A stretch of DNA of 64,000 nt. Origin: a virus (lineage: Duplodnaviria; Heunggongvirae; Uroviricota; Caudoviricetes). The translations under genes and the position numbers were made by a program. Every line of letters begins with the position of its first letter. Position 1 is the first letter of the stretch. The notes beneath the pieces were generated by a model. The model saw nothing but the letters and a program-made list of their open reading frames with translations. It had not been told where the DNA came from and made no database searches. Positions 8,755-22,129 of this stretch are shown piece after piece. Location: IMG/VR virus record IMGVR_UViG_2574180019_000006; one strand, written 5' to 3'.

Positions 8755-8775
8755 AAGATAACAACTTGTTTAAAC
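8755..8775. promoter_or_regulatory. Palindrome AAACAA-N-TTGTTT upstream of nrdB (operator or 5'-UTR hairpin)
   Basis: ataacaacttgtttaaac ~30 nt upstream of ATG; same motif recurs upstream of many ORFs. Confidence 0.4.
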
Positions 8776-15897: not shown

Positions 15898-16491
15898 ATG
15901 ATTGCAGCCGAAAAAATCAAACAGCGAAAGCGCGACAACTCTCTTCGTGACCTCTGGAGAACACCTGACTGGCTGTTTTCTGCCATTCAACGTTATCTTG
16001 GAGTGACATTTGATGTTGACGTTGCCTGCAACAAGGACAATGCAAAGCTGCCTAATTTCATAGGCGTTGAGCGTGATGCTTTGAAATCTGAATGGGGACA
16101 GCCAGGTACAATTGCCTTCCTCAATCCACCCTACTCCAAAATCTACCCCTGGATTGATGCGGCTATACGTGAGCAGGCTCGCGGAGTTACAACAGTGATG
16201 CTAATTCCTCAATCCCTAGATACAAAGTGGTATGAGCGTGCAACAGAGTGTGCGAATGAGACGATTATTCTGTCTGGTGGCCGCGTAGCGTTTGTCGAGC
16301 CTGACGTAAATCTGGGTCAGGTAGAAGTAAACATCAACCCAGGTGGCAGTATGCTCGTTGTTTTTCGAGGATTCTGTCAGGACGCTGGGCACTCTATAAG
16401 CAAGATCCCTTTGGACGTCATGAAAAGTCTGGGAGGGTATGATCCTGCGAATGTGATCAGGAAAAAAAGACCATCAAAGAAGGCTGCTTAG
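15898..16491 (+). CDS. DNA N6-adenine methyltransferase (phage Dam-like family)
   Basis: 197 aa; WRTPDWLF N-terminal motif and catalytic FLNPPYS typical of phage N6-adenine MTases. Confidence 0.8.
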   Translation: MIAAEKIKQRKRDNSLRDLWRTPDWLFSAIQRYLGVTFDVDVACNKDNAKLPNFIGVERDALKSEWGQPGTIAFLNPPYSKIYPWIDAAIREQARGVTTVMLIPQSLDTKWYERATECANETIILSGGRVAFVEPDVNLGQVEVNINPGGSMLVVFRGFCQDAGHSISKIPLDVMKSLGGYDPANVIRKKRPSKKAA

Positions 16492-16520
16492 TTTGTTCTG
16501 GCGTCTGTAATTAGCCTGCT

Positions 16521-16565
16521 TCTGTATATATAAATAACTACATATTAATTATTAATATACGGAAG
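16521..16565. repeat. AT-rich palindromic element, copy 1 of 2 (ctgtatatataaata...ttaatatacggaag)
   Basis: ~55-bp element with conserved flanks duplicated at 47571-47625. Confidence 0.5.
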
Positions 16566-16676
16566 AAGGCTGTTTTGTATCAGAGACTCCAGACCTGAAC
16601 ATCACTACAGAATCCACTAGAGCCCCTTCCCAGACGCTTTAAAATCGATTTTATAAACCACTTTAAGGAAACCAAC

Positions 16677-16907
16677 ATGTCATACCCGACTAATGTCGTT
16701 GCGCTCGTAGAGAGCGATTTTCTGGCCCAGGCTCGTGAAATGATGAAAGATCGTGAGCAGGCTTTCAACTTGTACGAATGGGCAATTAAGTGCTTGCATC
16801 TTGGCGAGCATCGCGAACTTGTTGAACAGCTTTTAGGTGAGTTGATCAATGAGGTGTTTGCCTTGAATGTTCAACTACATGGTAGAGAAAATAATCAATC
16901 ACAATGA
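16677..16907 (+). CDS. hypothetical small protein (76 aa)
   Basis: ORF with RBS aaggaa 6 nt upstream of ATG. Confidence 0.4.
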   Translation: MSYPTNVVALVESDFLAQAREMMKDREQAFNLYEWAIKCLHLGEHRELVEQLLGELINEVFALNVQLHGRENNQSQ

Positions 16908-17487
16908 TAGATAAGTACAAACTATTCATAAAGTGAATTGTAAGTGCTAAGATCTGATAGTTTCCAGTCGTAGACTGGAGACTCGACCTGATGGGTGGGG
17001 GTAAGCGTCACTGGCGTCAGGTTTAAAAAAGCTCACTACCAGCGTAGAACTGGTGCCGTTTAGGTGTCGGGGAAGGGGGAACCAAAGTGAGCAGAGACAA
17101 GGGTCACTTTATGATTGTCGAGTCTGGGGTGTTTCGAGAGGTTGAATCCAGTACTCCCCTTCATAAAGTGTGGGAAGATCTCGGTTCTGGGGTGCTGTCA
17201 TCCATAACTTCCCAAGTCTAAGCTGGCAGTAGACTTAGACCATAACTTTTCAGGTTATGAAACGACCAGGTTGGTGAGAGATTTATACTCACCTCCCTGG
17301 GAGAGTATTACCTGAAAAGACAACCTCTCACTTCGTTCGAGGTGAACTTCACTCACTTCGTTCGTTCAGTTCAGGTTTATAAAAACCTGTTCTGGGAAGT
17401 AATTTGTTTATTTTAATAATTATTAACACGCACGCGTGTGCGCACGCGCGAGGAAAAATCGGCGCGGCGCTTGATTCAGGAGTTTAT

Positions 17488-18078
17488 ATGACGACGAAGA
17501 CACCAGCCCGATCGCAAGCAAAAACTCGCAAAAAAGCCAAAAACAAAAATTCTCCCCGCACCAATCCCACAACGCCTGTCGTAGAGTTCAATCCCCAGCT
17601 TAAAACCGTGAAAATCTTCAGTGATGGCTCTTGCCTTAAAAATCCGGGTGGCCCGGGCGGTTACGGTATCGTTCTTCAGTATCGTGGAGAGGAACGCGAG
17701 TTCTCAGATGGTTTTCATAGCACCACCAATAACCGCATGGAGATGATGGGGGCACTTATCGGGCTGGAGCGTTTGAAATATCCATGCAACGTTATTTTGC
17801 ACTCTGATAGCCAGTATCTGAAAAACGGCATGACACAGTGGATGAAATGGTGGAAACGCAATGGATGGATGACTTCTGACAAAAAACCGGTAAAGAATGT
17901 TGATCTGTGGAAGCGTCTGGATGAGGCCGCAAGTCGACATAATGTTCGCTGGAAGTGGGTTAAAGGTCACGCCGGGCATCGTGAAAATGAAATATGTGAT
18001 CGACTCGCGAAGATCGCAGCTTTTTCAGCAGCAGATATGCCTCACAAGAAAGATATTGGTTTTGTTTATAACAAATAG
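17488..18078 (+). CDS. rnhA: Ribonuclease HI with N-terminal basic extension
   Basis: Core [84 protein letters not shown] colinear with E. coli RnhA; ~40-aa Lys/Arg/Thr-rich leader; RBS aggag before ATG 17488. Confidence 0.85.
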
Positions 18079-18226
18079 TAAGTAAGTGTTTACCTATCAT
18101 TTTAAATCATGTATCTTATCGGCGTCAGGATGACAATGTGTCGGTAAGACACAGTTCCAGGATGGAACGAGAAAGGCGGCTGGCAATCGCCAGCCGCAAC
18201 TCTTTCTGACACTGGATGGAGTCCAC

Positions 18227-18721
18227 ATGGCACGTCAAACCTATTTCACTTCTGTAACTAAACGTCCTCGTTCTTTACGTCAAATTTTGGCCGAATTATT
18301 TAGCGGTCGTGTTATGTCACGCCTTGATGAACTAGAGACTACCGTTCGGTTGCTGAATGAACGTTTAGATAATCAAGCGTCAGTTGTTGCGAACGTGGGG
18401 GCGATTGTTGCCTCTGGTTCTTCACGCGAAGCGAAAAATGCACGGCCTTTAGTGAAGGAGAAAAACAACAAGGACAGTTCGAATGGAAAATTTTCAAAGA
18501 AAGAGGCTGAAACCAATGGCCTACGTTCTCATTATAGTTTCACTGGCGACGGTAGCCGTTCCAGCCGGTCAGAGCCTTTTGATGCCGGATTCATCCACCA
18601 CCACACCTTCGTCGACGACAATTACCACCACTCCAGTGGAGCGTCCTGTCACTCTGGATGGGATGGCGGTGGATGCGATACCTCAAGTTCATCCAGTTAC
18701 TCAGGATCATGCTGTGACTAA
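18227..18721 (+). CDS. hypothetical protein; 3' half overlaps next ORF in another frame (extent uncertain)
   Basis: RBS ggatggag upstream; N-terminal half coiled-coil-like, C-terminal half low-complexity G/S/C-rich. Confidence 0.3.
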   Translation: MARQTYFTSVTKRPRSLRQILAELFSGRVMSRLDELETTVRLLNERLDNQASVVANVGAIVASGSSREAKNARPLVKEKNNKDSSNGKFSKKEAETNGLRSHYSFTGDGSRSSRSEPFDAGFIHHHTFVDDNYHHSSGASCHSGWDGGGCDTSSSSSYSGSCCD

Positions 18722-18734
18722 GGCGGTTGTATGA
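18516..18734 (+). CDS. putative secreted/membrane-anchored Thr/Pro-rich protein
   Basis: RBS aagagg 9 nt upstream of ATG 18516; N-terminal signal-like MAYVLIIVSLATVAVPAGQ then TTTPSSTTITTTP linker. Confidence 0.4.
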   Translation: MAYVLIIVSLATVAVPAGQSLLMPDSSTTTPSSTTITTTPVERPVTLDGMAVDAIPQVHPVTQDHAVTKAVV

Positions 18735-18919
18735 ACTGGTTTTCAAATCACTTTGGAAAAATTTGGCTGGCAATTCTTGCCCTCATGGCCGCCGGTTGGG
18801 TATCGAACATTATAAAACTTGTTTGCTCTGGCGATCTCCAGTTTCAGGCTGGCATGACCTTAGCTCGTGTAGTTGGGATTTTTATTTTTCCAGTCGGTTC
18901 GGTACTTGGTTATTTCTGA
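18731..18919 (+). CDS. small membrane protein (62 aa, two predicted TM segments)
   Basis: ATG overlaps upstream stop (ATGA); hydrophobic stretches IWLAILALMAAGWV and VVGIFIFPVGSVLGYF. Confidence 0.4.
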   Translation: MNWFSNHFGKIWLAILALMAAGWVSNIIKLVCSGDLQFQAGMTLARVVGIFIFPVGSVLGYF

Positions 18920-18973
18920 CGGTTGTTAGTGCATATGCATTGACCGTCTTTGCGCAAGCAATTTATTTAACTA

Positions 18974-18990
18974 GAAAACAACTTGTTTTG
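18974..18990. promoter_or_regulatory. Palindrome gaaaacaacttgttttg upstream of TerB-like gene
   Basis: AAACAA-N-TTGTTT family, ~25 nt upstream of ATG followed by aaaaggaaaacacATG. Confidence 0.4.
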
Positions 18991-19012
18991 ACAAATAACA
19001 AAAGGAAAACAC

Positions 19013-19438
19013 ATGTTAGGTTTCTTCAAAAAGAAAACTCGTAAAGCTGTTATCGAAGTCAAAAAAATGGAGAACCGTGATGCGGTTGAGGCCACCGTGT
19101 GGGGCGCGTACATGATCTCCTATGCCGACGGCACATGTGACGCAAAAGAAATTGCCATTCTTGAGAAGACAATTGCAGCTCTGCCTGCGTTTTCTCCGTT
19201 TGCTGGTGAAATTGCCCAAATGAGCGCCAATATCCGTGCTCGTTACGAAGCGTCCCCTCGTTCTGCTAATGCACAGGCTATTCGTGAGCTGTCTGATATT
19301 GCGGGGACTCCAGAGGCGGTCGATGTTTTGTGTCTGTGCCTTGATATTGCCGATCAGGACGGCATTGGTGAACAAGAAGAGCAGGCACTGAAAAAGATCG
19401 CCCAGGCGCTTCAGTTGTCACTGGATGCTTATCTCTAA
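19013..19438 (+). CDS. putative TerB-like domain protein
   Basis: 141 aa; two acidic Asp/Glu-rich helical repeats (YADGTCDAKEIAILEK; DQDGIGEQEEQALKK) resembling TerB/DjlA-N fold; assignment tentative. Confidence 0.35.
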   Translation: MLGFFKKKTRKAVIEVKKMENRDAVEATVWGAYMISYADGTCDAKEIAILEKTIAALPAFSPFAGEIAQMSANIRARYEASPRSANAQAIRELSDIAGTPEAVDVLCLCLDIADQDGIGEQEEQALKKIAQALQLSLDAYL

Positions 19439-19596
19439 TGCTTGAGAGATTCCGGCTTGTGATCGTCATTGCTCTTCTGGTGATGGCGGTTTTGGTGGAT
19501 TTTACGGGAAAGATGATGTCTGTCATTTCTGATGGCGTCCTCATTGGTTTGGCGATCTACTTCGCTTATCCGTTAGTTCGTAAAGCAAAGTGTTAA
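19438..19596 (+). CDS. small hydrophobic membrane peptide (52 aa)
   Basis: Not in ORF track (<60 aa); ATG overlaps upstream stop (TAATG); sequence MLERFRLVIVIALLVMAVLVDF...; followed by terminator. Confidence 0.35.
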   Translation: MLERFRLVIVIALLVMAVLVDFTGKMMSVISDGVLIGLAIYFAYPLVRKAKC

Positions 19597-19599
19597 TGA

Positions 19600-19626
19600 C
19601 AAGGGCCAAATGGCCCTTGTGTTTCG
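19600..19626 (+). terminator. Rho-independent terminator
   Basis: caagggccaaatggcccttg hairpin followed by tgtttcg. Confidence 0.5.
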
Positions 19627-19702
19627 TTGACCGAAATAGAGAGTTTGCACCTTTACGTTTAGCTTGCTCCCCTTTTATGCCACATCACAATAAAGCCAAT
19701 AA

Positions 19703-19720
19703 GAAAACAACTTGTTTAAG
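19703..19720. promoter_or_regulatory. Palindrome gaaaacaacttgtttaag
   Basis: AAACAA-N-TTGTTT family upstream of ORF 19736. Confidence 0.4.
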
Positions 19721-19735
19721 CATTAGGAAAAACAC

Positions 19736-20302
19736 ATGTGCAAGAAATGCAAAGCGATAGCTGATGAACAAAACGCCTTATTCGAAGAAATGGATGCTAA
19801 TGAACTGGTCAAAATGTTAGCCATTCTTCGAGGAATAGAAGACGTTTCCATATTTGAGAGACTGTTTACAATACTTAATTTTAATTCCACCTTTGAAGAG
19901 CCAACTCAGATTGTAGCTTTGGCACACCATTTCGGTGTTCATTACCTTGCTGAAAAAGAGAGAGCTGATAAGTTGCAAGCGACTTTGGATATGGTGAGCG
20001 AGACTCAAGAAACTGATGACGGTAACAAAAGTGAGACGATTATTGCCAGCAAAGATCGTGAAATTGCCGGGCTTAAATCCTCTCTAACGATGTTGATGTC
20101 TGCAATCAACCTTATGTCTTCTAAAGCAGGTTCTAAAATGCCATCACTAAACAGCGACGATCCGATGGCCGTTCGCCAGCTTTTAGGTGCAATGGCCGAC
20201 CAGCTCGACGACACAAAGAGTCGCCTTGAAGACATGATGCGGGAGCTCACGCATCGCCATGACTTGAATAAGCAGCCGCACAAAACGCAATACGCACTCT
20301 AA
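19736..20302 (+). CDS. hypothetical protein (188 aa)
   Basis: ORF preceded by conserved ggaaaaacacATG leader. Confidence 0.45.
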   Translation: MCKKCKAIADEQNALFEEMDANELVKMLAILRGIEDVSIFERLFTILNFNSTFEEPTQIVALAHHFGVHYLAEKERADKLQATLDMVSETQETDDGNKSETIIASKDREIAGLKSSLTMLMSAINLMSSKAGSKMPSLNSDDPMAVRQLLGAMADQLDDTKSRLEDMMRELTHRHDLNKQPHKTQYAL

Positions 20303-20319
20303 TACAGCACCAGTCGACA

Positions 20320-20343
20320 GGGGGCGACAGCCCCCATTTTTAC
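20320..20343 (+). terminator. Rho-independent terminator
   Basis: gggggcgacagccccc hairpin followed by attttta. Confidence 0.5.
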
Positions 20344-20443
20344 GCCTTAAATCTGCTGTAACGCCTATGAATGCAGCTTTTATGCCTTTTCAAGTTTGCG
20401 ATAATTACACCAATCAGAAAACAAATTATTTAATGGTGTAATT

Positions 20444-22129
20444 ATGAATACAGCCCTTTCCATCATCGACGATGCCAGCTCAAACACGGCTATCGACTAT
20501 CGTCAGGAAATGAATGTCATCCACGAAATCGTGGCCGAGTGCGAGAAAGAGATCGCCTTCATGTATCAGGTACACGACTTCGTTTATGGCGACGAACGCC
20601 ACAACATGATTAATCGCCTGCTGAGACTAAACCATCGACCAGATGAAGATCGCTCGCGTTTAAATCGAGGTTGGTTGGATAAAGTCGATCTGGAATGGGT
20701 GAAACAGAATATTTGGGCCGAGTACTGGAGGAAGGTCACGGACATGACTAACGTTTTGCTGATCATGCCAGCTTCCCGTCGAGATGAGTGGCGCGAGCAG
20801 TTTATAGAGGGCAAACAGGAAGTCATCAAAACTGACAGAACCGGCTACCAGATGAAGGTTAAAGAGTTCGTTGGTGTACCGGAGTTCAAAGCAGAAACGG
20901 TCATACCCACGATGCTTAATTTGCTGAATGACAGGCACAAATATCTCTCTGAGCGCGTGTATGGCTTGTTTAAGGCGCTGAGTCCTGCGCACAAGACAAA
21001 TAAGACAAACGGTTTCAGCGAGCGGCTGATAATCGCTGACTGCATTTCTGATTTCTGGCGGGACAGCGTTAGCGTGAACTATCGCAAAGAGGACTACATC
21101 GACGATCTGCGTGTCTTGCTTCATTTCTTCGCGCACAAAGAATTTATTACCATCAACCGCACTGCTGAGGTGCTATCAGCTGCGTATCGGGCAAACGACT
21201 GCCAGACCGGTGACTGGATGAACGTCGATGGAAATCTGATGCGCGTGAAGATGTTCAAGAACGGCAACGTTCACTTTGAAATACATCCTGACGTGGCCTG
21301 GAAGTTGAATGAGGTGCTGGCTTACAGTATGCCTGCTGCAATCCCCGCGCCATGTCGCACCGCGCCAAAAACACGGGCACCAAAGCAGTTCGGGTTAATC
21401 CAGAAGACGATCTCCGTGCCGGTTCGCACTGCGCTTCGTGACGGGCGATTGAGCAAAGACAAAGGCGTATGGTACTTCTCTGATTCAGCTCTCCAGAAGT
21501 CGCAGGTGGAAGAGCTTGAGCGCACACTGAGCTTCATTGGCGGCGTGCAGGAGAAAAAACACTGGCAGTTCCCGTATGACATCGTCCATACGCTAAATAC
21601 GATTGTGGCTACCGGATTAATACCGGATACAAAATCACACCAGTTCTACCCTACCCCACGCTTGATTGCTGAGTACGTTGCCAGAGCCACTGAATTGAAG
21701 CCTGGTGAGAAGCTGCTGGAGCCTCAAGCCGGACGTGGGGATCTTCTGGCCTATATTAACGCCGATCTGGAAGATGTTACCTGCATAGAAATCGCACCTC
21801 TCTTCGCTGATATCCTGCGTGGAAAAGGGTATACGAACACGATTTGCTGCGACTTCATAAAGTGGTCTGAGGACAACGCAGGTTATCAGTTCGACAAAAT
21901 CGTTATGAACCCGCCGTACTCGCTTGGTCGTCATAGAGAGCACACTCTGGCTGCGCTTGGGCATCTGAAAGTCGGCGGGCGTCTTGTAGCAGTATTGCCG
22001 GGCACTGCGCCAATACTGGACTGGATGACGATGGATAATTACGTTTATGCCAGAGGGAAGTCGTTTACCAACGAGTTTGAAGACACAGGGATCACAGTCA
22101 GCGTATACGTTTTCAAACGCGTTAAATGA
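20444..22129 (+). CDS. two-domain protein with C-terminal N6-adenine DNA methyltransferase domain
   Basis: 561 aa; C-terminal AdoMet motif I LEPQAGRGDL and catalytic motif IV VMNPPYS; N-terminal ~380 aa of unknown function. Confidence 0.6.
   Translation: MNTALSIIDDASSNTAIDYRQEMNVIHEIVAECEKEIAFMYQVHDFVYGDERHNMINRLLRLNHRPDEDRSRLNRGWLDKVDLEWVKQNIWAEYWRKVTDMTNVLLIMPASRRDEWREQFIEGKQEVIKTDRTGYQMKVKEFVGVPEFKAETVIPTMLNLLNDRHKYLSERVYGLFKALSPAHKTNKTNGFSERLIIADCISDFWRDSVSVNYRKEDYIDDLRVLLHFFAHKEFITINRTAEVLSAAYRANDCQTGDWMNVDGNLMRVKMFKNGNVHFEIHPDVAWKLNEVLAYSMPAAIPAPCRTAPKTRAPKQFGLIQKTISVPVRTALRDGRLSKDKGVWYFSDSALQKSQVEELERTLSFIGGVQEKKHWQFPYDIVHTLNTIVATGLIPDTKSHQFYPTPRLIAEYVARATELKPGEKLLEPQAGRGDLLAYINADLEDVTCIEIAPLFADILRGKGYTNTICCDFIKWSEDNAGYQFDKIVMNPPYSLGRHREHTLAALGHLKVGGRLVAVLPGTAPILDWMTMDNYVYARGKSFTNEFEDTGITVSVYVFKRVK

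Follow-up and report, generated by a model that had tools for sequence, protein, structure and literature searches.

Two overlapping reading frames and a tciA-tciB pair among the early genes of an Escherichia coli SSU5-type phage-plasmid

Positions 18227 to 19596 of a 64,000-nucleotide (nt) stretch of viral DNA (IMG/VR record IMGVR_UViG_2574180019_000006, Caudoviricetes; the whole stretch is hereafter called the window) carry five small open reading frames (ORFs), two of which overlap in different frames. Is each of these ORFs a gene, do they act as one module, and what might their products do? A first-pass annotation of this DNA had grouped them into a single membrane-directed module and had left the overlap to be resolved; all five ORFs were found where it had placed them. 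Its relatives mark the window as SSU5-type phage-plasmid DNA from E. coli. Across positions 17400 to 20400, identity to the E. coli phage-plasmids Cyrano, CMS-2020a, and PhiR41_1 is 96-98%, the E. coli plasmid pLAU-OXA1 is 100% identical to positions 18100 to 19000, and 681 plasmid records match this stretch. The comparisons described here point to an overprinted gene pair, ORF164 and alt83, in a unit separate from the downstream tciA-tciB pair.

ORF164 (18227 to 18721, plus strand) matches PHROG 10411 (E 7e-79), and its last 79 codons overlap alt83 (18483 to 18734, plus strand), an 83-amino-acid (aa) frame in the +1 register of ORF164 that belongs to PHROG 15659. The overlap of 18227-18721 with 18516-18734 had been flagged as a conflict between ORF calls. 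The overlap itself is real, but it does not call for a choice, as both frames are under selection; ORF164 and alt83 are very probably both genes. The locus was gathered from 80 related elements with ORF164 as the handle, which gave 57 distinct sequences, with ORF164 amino acid identity to the window as low as 40% among the collected relatives. Both frames are open in the 57 distinct sequences and in the remote loci L089 and L092, the exceptions being indel fusions in L053 and L079. The alt83 stop codon lies 13 nt beyond the ORF164 stop codon in every intact sequence.

The way in which the overlap varies carries most of the argument. Outside the overlap, variability at ORF164 codon positions 1, 2, and 3 was 0.30, 0.23, and 0.51, versus 0.37, 0.28, and 0.23 inside it, and the drop at the third position (0.51 to 0.23) was highly significant (Mann-Whitney p 1e-9). 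When the same columns were read in the alt83 frame, alt83 position 3 was the most variable (0.37-0.40), followed by position 1 and then position 2 (0.15-0.23). The proportion of synonymous differences (pS) in ORF164 fell from 0.63 outside the overlap to 0.31 inside, and the apparent ratio of nonsynonymous to synonymous change (omega) in the overlap was ~1.1 for ORF164 and ~0.6 for alt83. For five neighboring genes, third-position variability was 0.48-0.63 and pS was 0.66-0.74. Codon adaptation in the overlap was 0.75 for ORF164 and 0.76 for alt83, compared with 0.55 for the third frame. We take the substitution pattern as the decisive evidence for the proposed dual coding.

Openness of the frames was informative in one direction. 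Random recoding with the alt83 protein held fixed left ORF164 open in only 2-8% of trials per lineage, which argues that the ORF164 frame is actively kept open. The reverse is weak evidence and counts against dual coding: the alt83 frame stayed open in 10-72% of synonymous recodings of ORF164, because hydrophobic residues are scarce in the second half of the ORF164 protein. That range, together with the fact that most annotation pipelines call just ORF164, would fit an explanation in which only ORF164 is translated, the low synonymous variation reflects constraint at the RNA level (structure or translation signals for ORF62), and the +1 ORF is a by-product of composition. We consider this quite unlikely, since the variation that remains is codon periodic in the alt83 frame, alt83 is as well adapted in codon use as real genes are, and the position of its stop codon past that of ORF164 is constant in all intact sequences. 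In addition, the alt83 start codon, Shine-Dalgarno (SD)-like motif, positive n-region, and hydrophobic segment persist where ORF164 is barely recognizable (E 2e-4).

The conserved start of alt83 is the ATG at 18483 (GTG in the remote locus L089), which is universal among the relatives. A purine-rich SD-like motif lies 8-10 nt upstream and is kept in 43 distinct alt83 variants. The Thr/Pro-rich ORF of the first-pass annotation began instead at 18516; its N-terminal hydrophobic segment was confirmed, but 18516 was rejected as the main start because it is ATT in the L062 clade and unaligned in L089, whereas 18483 is universal. In the window, the two in-frame ATGs (18483 and 18516) are 11 codons apart, each with an SD-like motif, and the longer form carries a +4 basic extension. 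Dual-start holin/antiholin genes have a similar layout. One clade lacks the second ATG, and any dual-start use would therefore not be universal; use of both starts is possible.

Natural variants of the pair were also found. In P0011, P0013, P0014, and P0018, deletion of 1 nt in a TTTT run at 18577 to 18580 joins the N-terminal portion of ORF164 to the C terminus of alt83 and truncates alt83, other indels produce fusions in L053 and L079, and P0024 is also among the variants. The variants occur on several different backgrounds and may reflect either loss of function or errors in sequencing. Exactly such fusions would be the product of a programmed +1 frameshift joining the ORF164 N-terminal part to the alt83 C terminus. 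Yet the observed fusions are 1-nt deletions and other indels in the DNA, a conserved start codon and SD-like motif that belong to alt83 itself lie well upstream, and no conserved slippery site or stimulator was seen. Programmed frameshifting was rejected because conservation of the TTTT run is limited to the E. coli clade, and we regard it as extremely improbable. For separation of the two frames, single-base alleles were computed: T18484C changes the alt83 ATG to ACG and C18613A places a stop at alt83 codon 44, both silent in ORF164, and G18509T places a stop at ORF164 codon 95 and is silent in alt83.

The pair with dual coding has a narrow distribution. An exhaustive ORF164 profile search of 1.84 billion representative proteins returned only 20 relatives, all of one family and one synteny, and gave no link to a known family. 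In the most remote of these, P0059 (E 2e-4) and P0052, the gene order is Dam, x, RNase H, ORF164-like, TerB; the +1 gene is present with the same geometry and features, and DUF3927 follows TerB where the contig has been called that far (L091). Pfam, NCBIfam, and PADLOC returned no match for ORF164, alt83, or ORF62, and PHROGs gave only "unknown function" families. Most records annotate ORF164 only, the +1 product being represented in a few Cronobacter records and in PHROG 15659, and no description of ORF164/alt83 dual coding was found. Both frames always co-occur and have equal codon adaptation, so neither stands out as the older one. Like other overprinted viral genes (reviewed in PMC8227390 and PMC6195259), the pair shows suppressed synonymous change, a largely disordered partner of biased composition (ORF164), and a narrow taxonomic range. 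Unlike them, it lies in a large double-stranded DNA (dsDNA) phage-plasmid in which genome compression is no obvious driver, and ORF164 and alt83 always occur together, with neither callable as ancestral. The alt83 frame would be a conserved gene overlooked in most annotations of SSU5-type phage-plasmids, which are widespread in clinical Enterobacteriaceae. With good statistical support and separation-of-function mutations at hand, the pair would be a clean example of dual coding in a phage with a large dsDNA genome.

What do the two frames encode? ORF164 has a basic N terminus, an invariant N-terminal motif (LAELFSGRV), a helical region, and a conserved C-terminal stretch (...CHSGWD..G.D.SSS...CCD) in a Ser/Gly/His/Cys-rich tail ending in CCD. 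AlphaFold2 placed helices at residues 17-25 and 28-70 with a predicted local distance difference test score (pLDDT) of up to 94, and residues 71-164 had a pLDDT of ~40. ORF164 would be a cytoplasmic protein; the model gives it one confident long helix (28-70), and its disordered tail spans the entire overlap. The alt83 product contains 12 Thr and 8 Pro residues and one N-terminal hydrophobic segment (Kyte-Doolittle hydropathy in 19-residue windows, as for all segments below: 2.0 over 19 residues in the window's copy, h-region 2.0-2.5). Its n-region, MENFQRKRLKP, has +3 or +4 and -1 charges in all 43 variants. The hydrophobic segment of ~20 residues ends in (T/A)-V-A before VP. Beyond it come residues rich in Thr and Pro and the conserved motif LDGMxVDxIP; one alt83-specific stretch of sequence reads ...PVTLDGMAVDAIPQVHPVTQDHAVTK. 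These features predict that alt83 is either secreted by Sec or anchored N-in with a periplasmic C terminus. Reading it as a lipoprotein was rejected: there is no lipobox, the window and most clades have no Cys either within the hydrophobic segment or beyond it, and the LITIC of Klebsiella is not a lipobox.

ORF62 (18731 to 18919, plus strand; PHROG 6006, E 2e-25) encodes a small membrane protein with two transmembrane (TM) segments, as had been proposed for the 62-aa ORF (hydropathy of 1.9 and 1.8). Its pS is 0.66 and its proportion of nonsynonymous differences (pN) is 0.27. The start codon overlaps the alt83 stop codon (ATGA, 18731 to 18734) and is 9 nt after the ORF164 stop codon; both upstream frames end at the ORF62 start, and translation of ORF62 is therefore probably coupled, to either frame. 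Distant homologues of ORF62 occur in the early regions of Aeromonas, Vibrio, and Octadecabacter phages, in a context that lacks annotation and gave no functional clue. With the two-TM product of tciB (below), the membrane-directed products anticipated by the first-pass annotation comprise two small proteins with two TM segments each and one protein with a signal or anchor segment, and both stop/start overlaps that it described, ATGA and TAATG (19436 to 19440), were read in the sequence.

The geometry of ORF164 and alt83 is that of lambda Rz/Rz1 and P2 lysB/lysC: the second gene is in the +1 frame, starts inside the first, ends just beyond it, and is predicted to encode a small Pro/Thr-rich, envelope-targeted product. 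A lysis set, with ORF164/alt83 as a spanin-like "overlapped" Rz/Rz1 pair and the two-TM ORF62 as a small class II holin/antiholin, would account for this arrangement. The products do not bear it out. ORF164 has no N-terminal TM segment (no 19-residue window reaches at least 1.2) and is modeled as a soluble long helix, alt83 has no lipobox cysteine in most clades, and ORF62 ends in ...VGSVLGYF without a charged C-terminal tail. Nor does the location fit. The curated annotation of Cyrano places the interval among ThyX, polynucleotide kinase, dihydrofolate reductase, exonuclease, Dam-type methylase, and RNase H genes of DNA metabolism, with no endolysin nearby. Cyrano, which is 97% identical, has its complete holin/endolysin/Rz/Rz1 cassette, including the real spanin pair, at 26.7-28.2 kb and the equivalent unit at 79.8-80.5 kb, ~52 kb apart. 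By collinearity with Cyrano, the lysis cassette of the window's element would fall past the window end, and the terminase and head genes of the window lie from 47736 onward, 28 kb downstream of the cluster. These distances agree with the earlier claim that the cluster is far from structural genes and from any endolysin. A lysis function was rejected, as the i-spanin TM segment, the o-spanin lipobox, the lysis-cassette location, and, apart from the two TM segments of ORF62, the class II holin features were not found, and it is very improbable.

How is the overprinted pair controlled? A weak sigma-70-like promoter candidate lies at 18089 to 18117 (plus strand; TTTACC, 17 nt, TATCTT). It matches 8 of 12 consensus positions, which is below the scanner threshold, and both hexamers are kept across clades whose coding sequences are only ~60% identical. 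Three hairpins follow at 18124 to 18168 (plus strand): H1 (GTC-AGGAT-GAC), H2 (TGTGTC-GGTAA-GACACA), and H3 (GTTCC-AGGAT-GGAAC). Among the relatives, 95.6% of cells were paired versus 28-50% in slid controls, compensatory changes were present in 8 of 14 pairs, and 0 of 500 shuffles reached this. In L089, the H3 stems have fully covaried and the GGA of the loop is kept. The ORF164 leader as a whole (18089 to 18226) is better conserved than the coding region.

H1 and H3 both show CAGGATG (copies at 18126 and 18158) with GGA in the loop AGGAT, and a third GGA lies in the ORF164 ribosome-binding site, which reads CTGGATGGAG. The repeat consensus of CsrB is reportedly CAGGA(U/A/C)G (Liu et al. 1997). 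In having two CAGGAUG elements with loop GGA in short hairpins and a GGA at the ribosome-binding site, the leader resembles CsrB and CsrA-regulated leaders. It differs from CsrB in being an mRNA leader rather than a sponge RNA, and the likeness is one of sequence and structure: the Rfam CsrB match at 18123 to 18168 is weak (16.8 bits, E 0.13), far below the gathering score of 71 bits, and an Rfam scan of 16000 to 21000 returned nothing at gathering level. CsrA control of the ORF164 unit is a testable lead and not a result, and the GGA-hairpin leader opens a direct test of host CsrA control over a phage gene set. A broader form, in which CsrA gates an overprinted pair of one cytoplasmic and one periplasmic or membrane protein that feeds ORF62, with an envelope function shared with TciA and TciB and tied to host physiology, seems doubtful. 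Between the leader hairpins and the ORF164 ribosome-binding site, a G+C-rich 9-bp hairpin (18176 to 18197, plus strand) scored as a terminator-like hit with a conserved stem and some covariation; it is possibly an attenuator or the rnhA terminator.

Downstream of ORF62 lie tciA (19013 to 19438, plus strand; 141 aa; PHROG 632, E 5e-63) and tciB (19438 to 19596, plus strand; 52 aa; PHROG 1470, "TciB-like"), which are coupled by the TAATG overlap. The 141-aa/52-aa pair is, by homology alone, the known tciA/tciB of P1, and Cyrano already annotates it as "P1 TciA-like" and "P1 TciB-like." TciA is 78.7% identical to P1 TciA over its full length (residues 1-141, E 1e-69), while TciB is only 38% identical to P1 TciB. 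As had been noted from the sequence, TciA is an acidic TerB-like protein (21 D+E versus 16 K+R); it matches Pfam TerB (PF05099) over residues 33-136 at 31.5 bits (E 2.4e-7), above the gathering cutoff of 24.4. The 52-aa product had been called a hydrophobic peptide; it is hydrophobic, but with two segments (2.5 and 1.8) and a match to Pfam DUF3927 (46.6 bits, cutoff 25) it is better described as a two-TM protein. ORF62, tciA, and tciB have ordinary coding signatures across relatives (third-position variability of 0.53-0.63, pN/pS of 0.16-0.48) and so are not chance ORFs.

The TciA-TciB pair agrees with the tciA-tciB-tciC genes of P1 (ban operon region) in the full-length TciA match, in the DUF3927 two-TM TciB, and in the stop/start overlap, which in P1 places the tciA end and the tciB start at locus position 2926. 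It differs in lacking tciC, in having a terminator-like hairpin directly after tciB, and in having an SSU5-backbone palindrome and leader, not the P1 context, upstream of tciA. The hairpin (19599 to 19630, with the hairpin proper at 19599 to 19620, plus strand) has the form ACAAGGGCC-AAAT-GGCCCTTGT followed by GTTTCGTT and closes the tciAB unit; an equivalent GGGCC...GGCCC hairpin follows tciB in Klebsiella and Cronobacter relatives.

Paired acidic ADG...E motifs define the TerB domain, and the two in TciA, YADGTCDAKE and IADQDGIGEQEE, are largely invariant in an alignment with a mean column identity of 87%. The tciA gene has a pN of 0.12 versus a pS of 0.74, and 98 phage records contain a TciA relative. 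In the Klebsiella/Cronobacter clades, identity to the window was 91-92% for TciA, compared with 40-51% for ORF164, 65-69% for TciB, and 52-60% for the next gene; TciA is 84% identical in L089. Across backbones (L003, L008, L089, and L092), TciA is 72-92% identical with flanking genes at 40-69%. This conservation gap is extreme and points to an interaction under tight constraint, probably with a component of the host. The P1 tci genes, named by homology alone, are nonessential by CRISPR interference. A phmmer search of TciA against PDB sequences gave no significant match. TciA resembles TerB of the tellurite-resistance operon terZABCDE (PF05099; nuclear magnetic resonance structure of KP-TerB) in scoring above the gathering threshold, in being acidic, and in its two ADG...E motifs. 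It differs in being a stand-alone phage gene, without terC, terD, or terZ, and in having a 52-aa two-TM peptide for a partner where TerB of ter operons partners the integral membrane protein TerC (PMC11003894).

The palindrome before tciA, AAACAA-C-TTGTTT (18976 to 18988, assigned to no strand), is 24 nt upstream of the start codon. AAACAA-N-TTGTTT occurs at ~17 sites in the window (34 strand matches versus 3.3 expected; 0 of 100 shuffles reach this), with 13-nt sites at 8759, 18976, 19705, 20419, 23327, 31440, 31491, 33531, 34713, 35090, 35574, 36477, 37241, 47658, and 47683. Where checked, it is 12-24 nt before an early-gene start codon and is followed by a conserved leader, ...AAGGAAAAACACATG. 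In every SSU5-type clade, palindrome and leader stand before both tciA and the gene that follows the pair, and in the window they also precede about 15 other genes. Upstream of tciA in P1 and in phage Fostie they are missing, which assigns them to the backbone rather than to a mobile tci cassette. The palindrome probably serves as an operator or promoter peculiar to SSU5-type backbones.

Do these genes constitute one module, as had been proposed? The parts are gained and lost separately. ORF164 with alt83 is in 80 of 80 loci (by construction, ORF164 having been used to gather them). The count is 68 for ORF62 and 52 for tciA with tciB, the two always paired on contigs long enough to show both. 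Candidate control elements, two in number, also set units apart: ORF164 has its own leader, while tciA is preceded by the backbone palindrome and tciB is followed by the terminator-like hairpin. The cluster thus falls into three presence/absence units and is not one indivisible module, although the most remote relatives still have the neighborhood rnhA - ORF164/alt83 - TerB - DUF3927, so the association of ORF164/alt83 with tciAB is old.

Published transcriptomes of LF82, a Cyrano lysogen, bear on when these genes act. In overnight LB cultures, CYRAN_83-86 were at the floor (5-8 normalized counts, floor of 5), and they are not among the listed morons. This argues for expression in lytic growth and against lysogenic conversion, which had been suggested in the form of one membrane-directed module giving the lysogen superinfection exclusion or protection from membrane stress. 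That suggestion draws on the membrane-directed products, on the neighborhood conserved in remote relatives, and on the tie of TerB-containing ter operons to phage inhibition and colicin resistance (as reported with reference to Whelan et al. 1995). The background counts in the lysogen, the independent gain and loss of the parts, and the lack of a PADLOC match all stand against it; we consider it unlikely, and superinfection exclusion by the resident plasmid-prophage is specifically disfavored. To our knowledge, TerB alone has never been shown to confer phage inhibition or colicin resistance. Exclusion or membrane protection during lytic growth is possible.

The reading that we prefer, to which we give a probability of roughly 55% in its full form, is that the interval consists of units of small genes from the early region of DNA metabolism. 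They would be silent while the element is a plasmid and most likely expressed in lytic growth, with an accessory role in the envelope. Unit 1 (~18089 to 18919) would run from the weak promoter through the GGA-hairpin leader to ORF164, the embedded alt83 with its own ribosome-binding site and start codon, and then ORF62. The alt83 product would have a Sec-type signal or an N-in anchor, leaving the Thr/Pro-rich remainder in the periplasm, and ORF62 translation would probably be coupled to both upstream frames. Unit 2 (18976 to 19630) would supply a cytoplasmic TerB-domain protein and its two-TM DUF3927 partner, with TciB tethering TciA to the inner membrane by analogy to the TerB-TerC partnership of ter operons. 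The alt83 and ORF62 products may form a second inner-membrane/periplasmic assembly, and all of the products together may condition or protect the cell envelope during phage development. They would be accessory rather than essential, given the nonessential P1 tci genes and the natural ORF164/alt83 frameshift variants.

Confidence is much higher for the anatomy of the locus and much lower for its physiology. Besides the ease with which the alt83 frame stays open, several points weigh against the preferred reading. The coding status of alt83 and the other ORFs comes from sequence comparison only, and the column-based tests of variability ignore phylogenetic nonindependence. Hydropathy does not distinguish a signal peptide from an uncleaved anchor in alt83, for which AlphaFold2 gave one low-confidence helix; the alt83 and ORF164 models are of low confidence outside helices. 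The TciA-TciB and alt83-ORF62 interactions are deduced only from gene coupling. The phenotypes associated with TerB belong to the whole ter operon and not to TerB alone, no defense-system match for the cluster was found by PADLOC, and no functional study of tciA/tciB or DUF3927 was found in the literature. The GGA-hairpin leader is a new lead, and the TerB/DUF3927 part is already known and named. Current understanding is not overturned, and the main practical gain is better annotation.

The site after ORF62/tciB was seen to be a variable cargo site (L004, 3011-3745; L006/L007, 2792 onward; L094, 3212 onward). It holds an antirepressor or Rha regulator in SSU5, in the place of tciAB, and in an E. 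coli plasmid, and a large reverse-strand ATPase in some Citrobacter/Klebsiella plasmids. In pLAU-OXA1, ISEcp1 lies just downstream. A 56-aa ORF with a GTG start (19590 to 19760) that overlaps the tciB end has no homologue and is almost certainly spurious; it reads through the terminator-like hairpin and on into the intergenic region, across the conserved leader that precedes the next gene. Finally, a 44-codon ORF upstream of rnhA (~17087 to 17221, the CYRAN_81 equivalent), for which there was no Rfam match, had 117 normalized counts in the LF82 lysogen, ~12-fold over background; expression of a moron or of a small RNA while the element is a plasmid could explain this.

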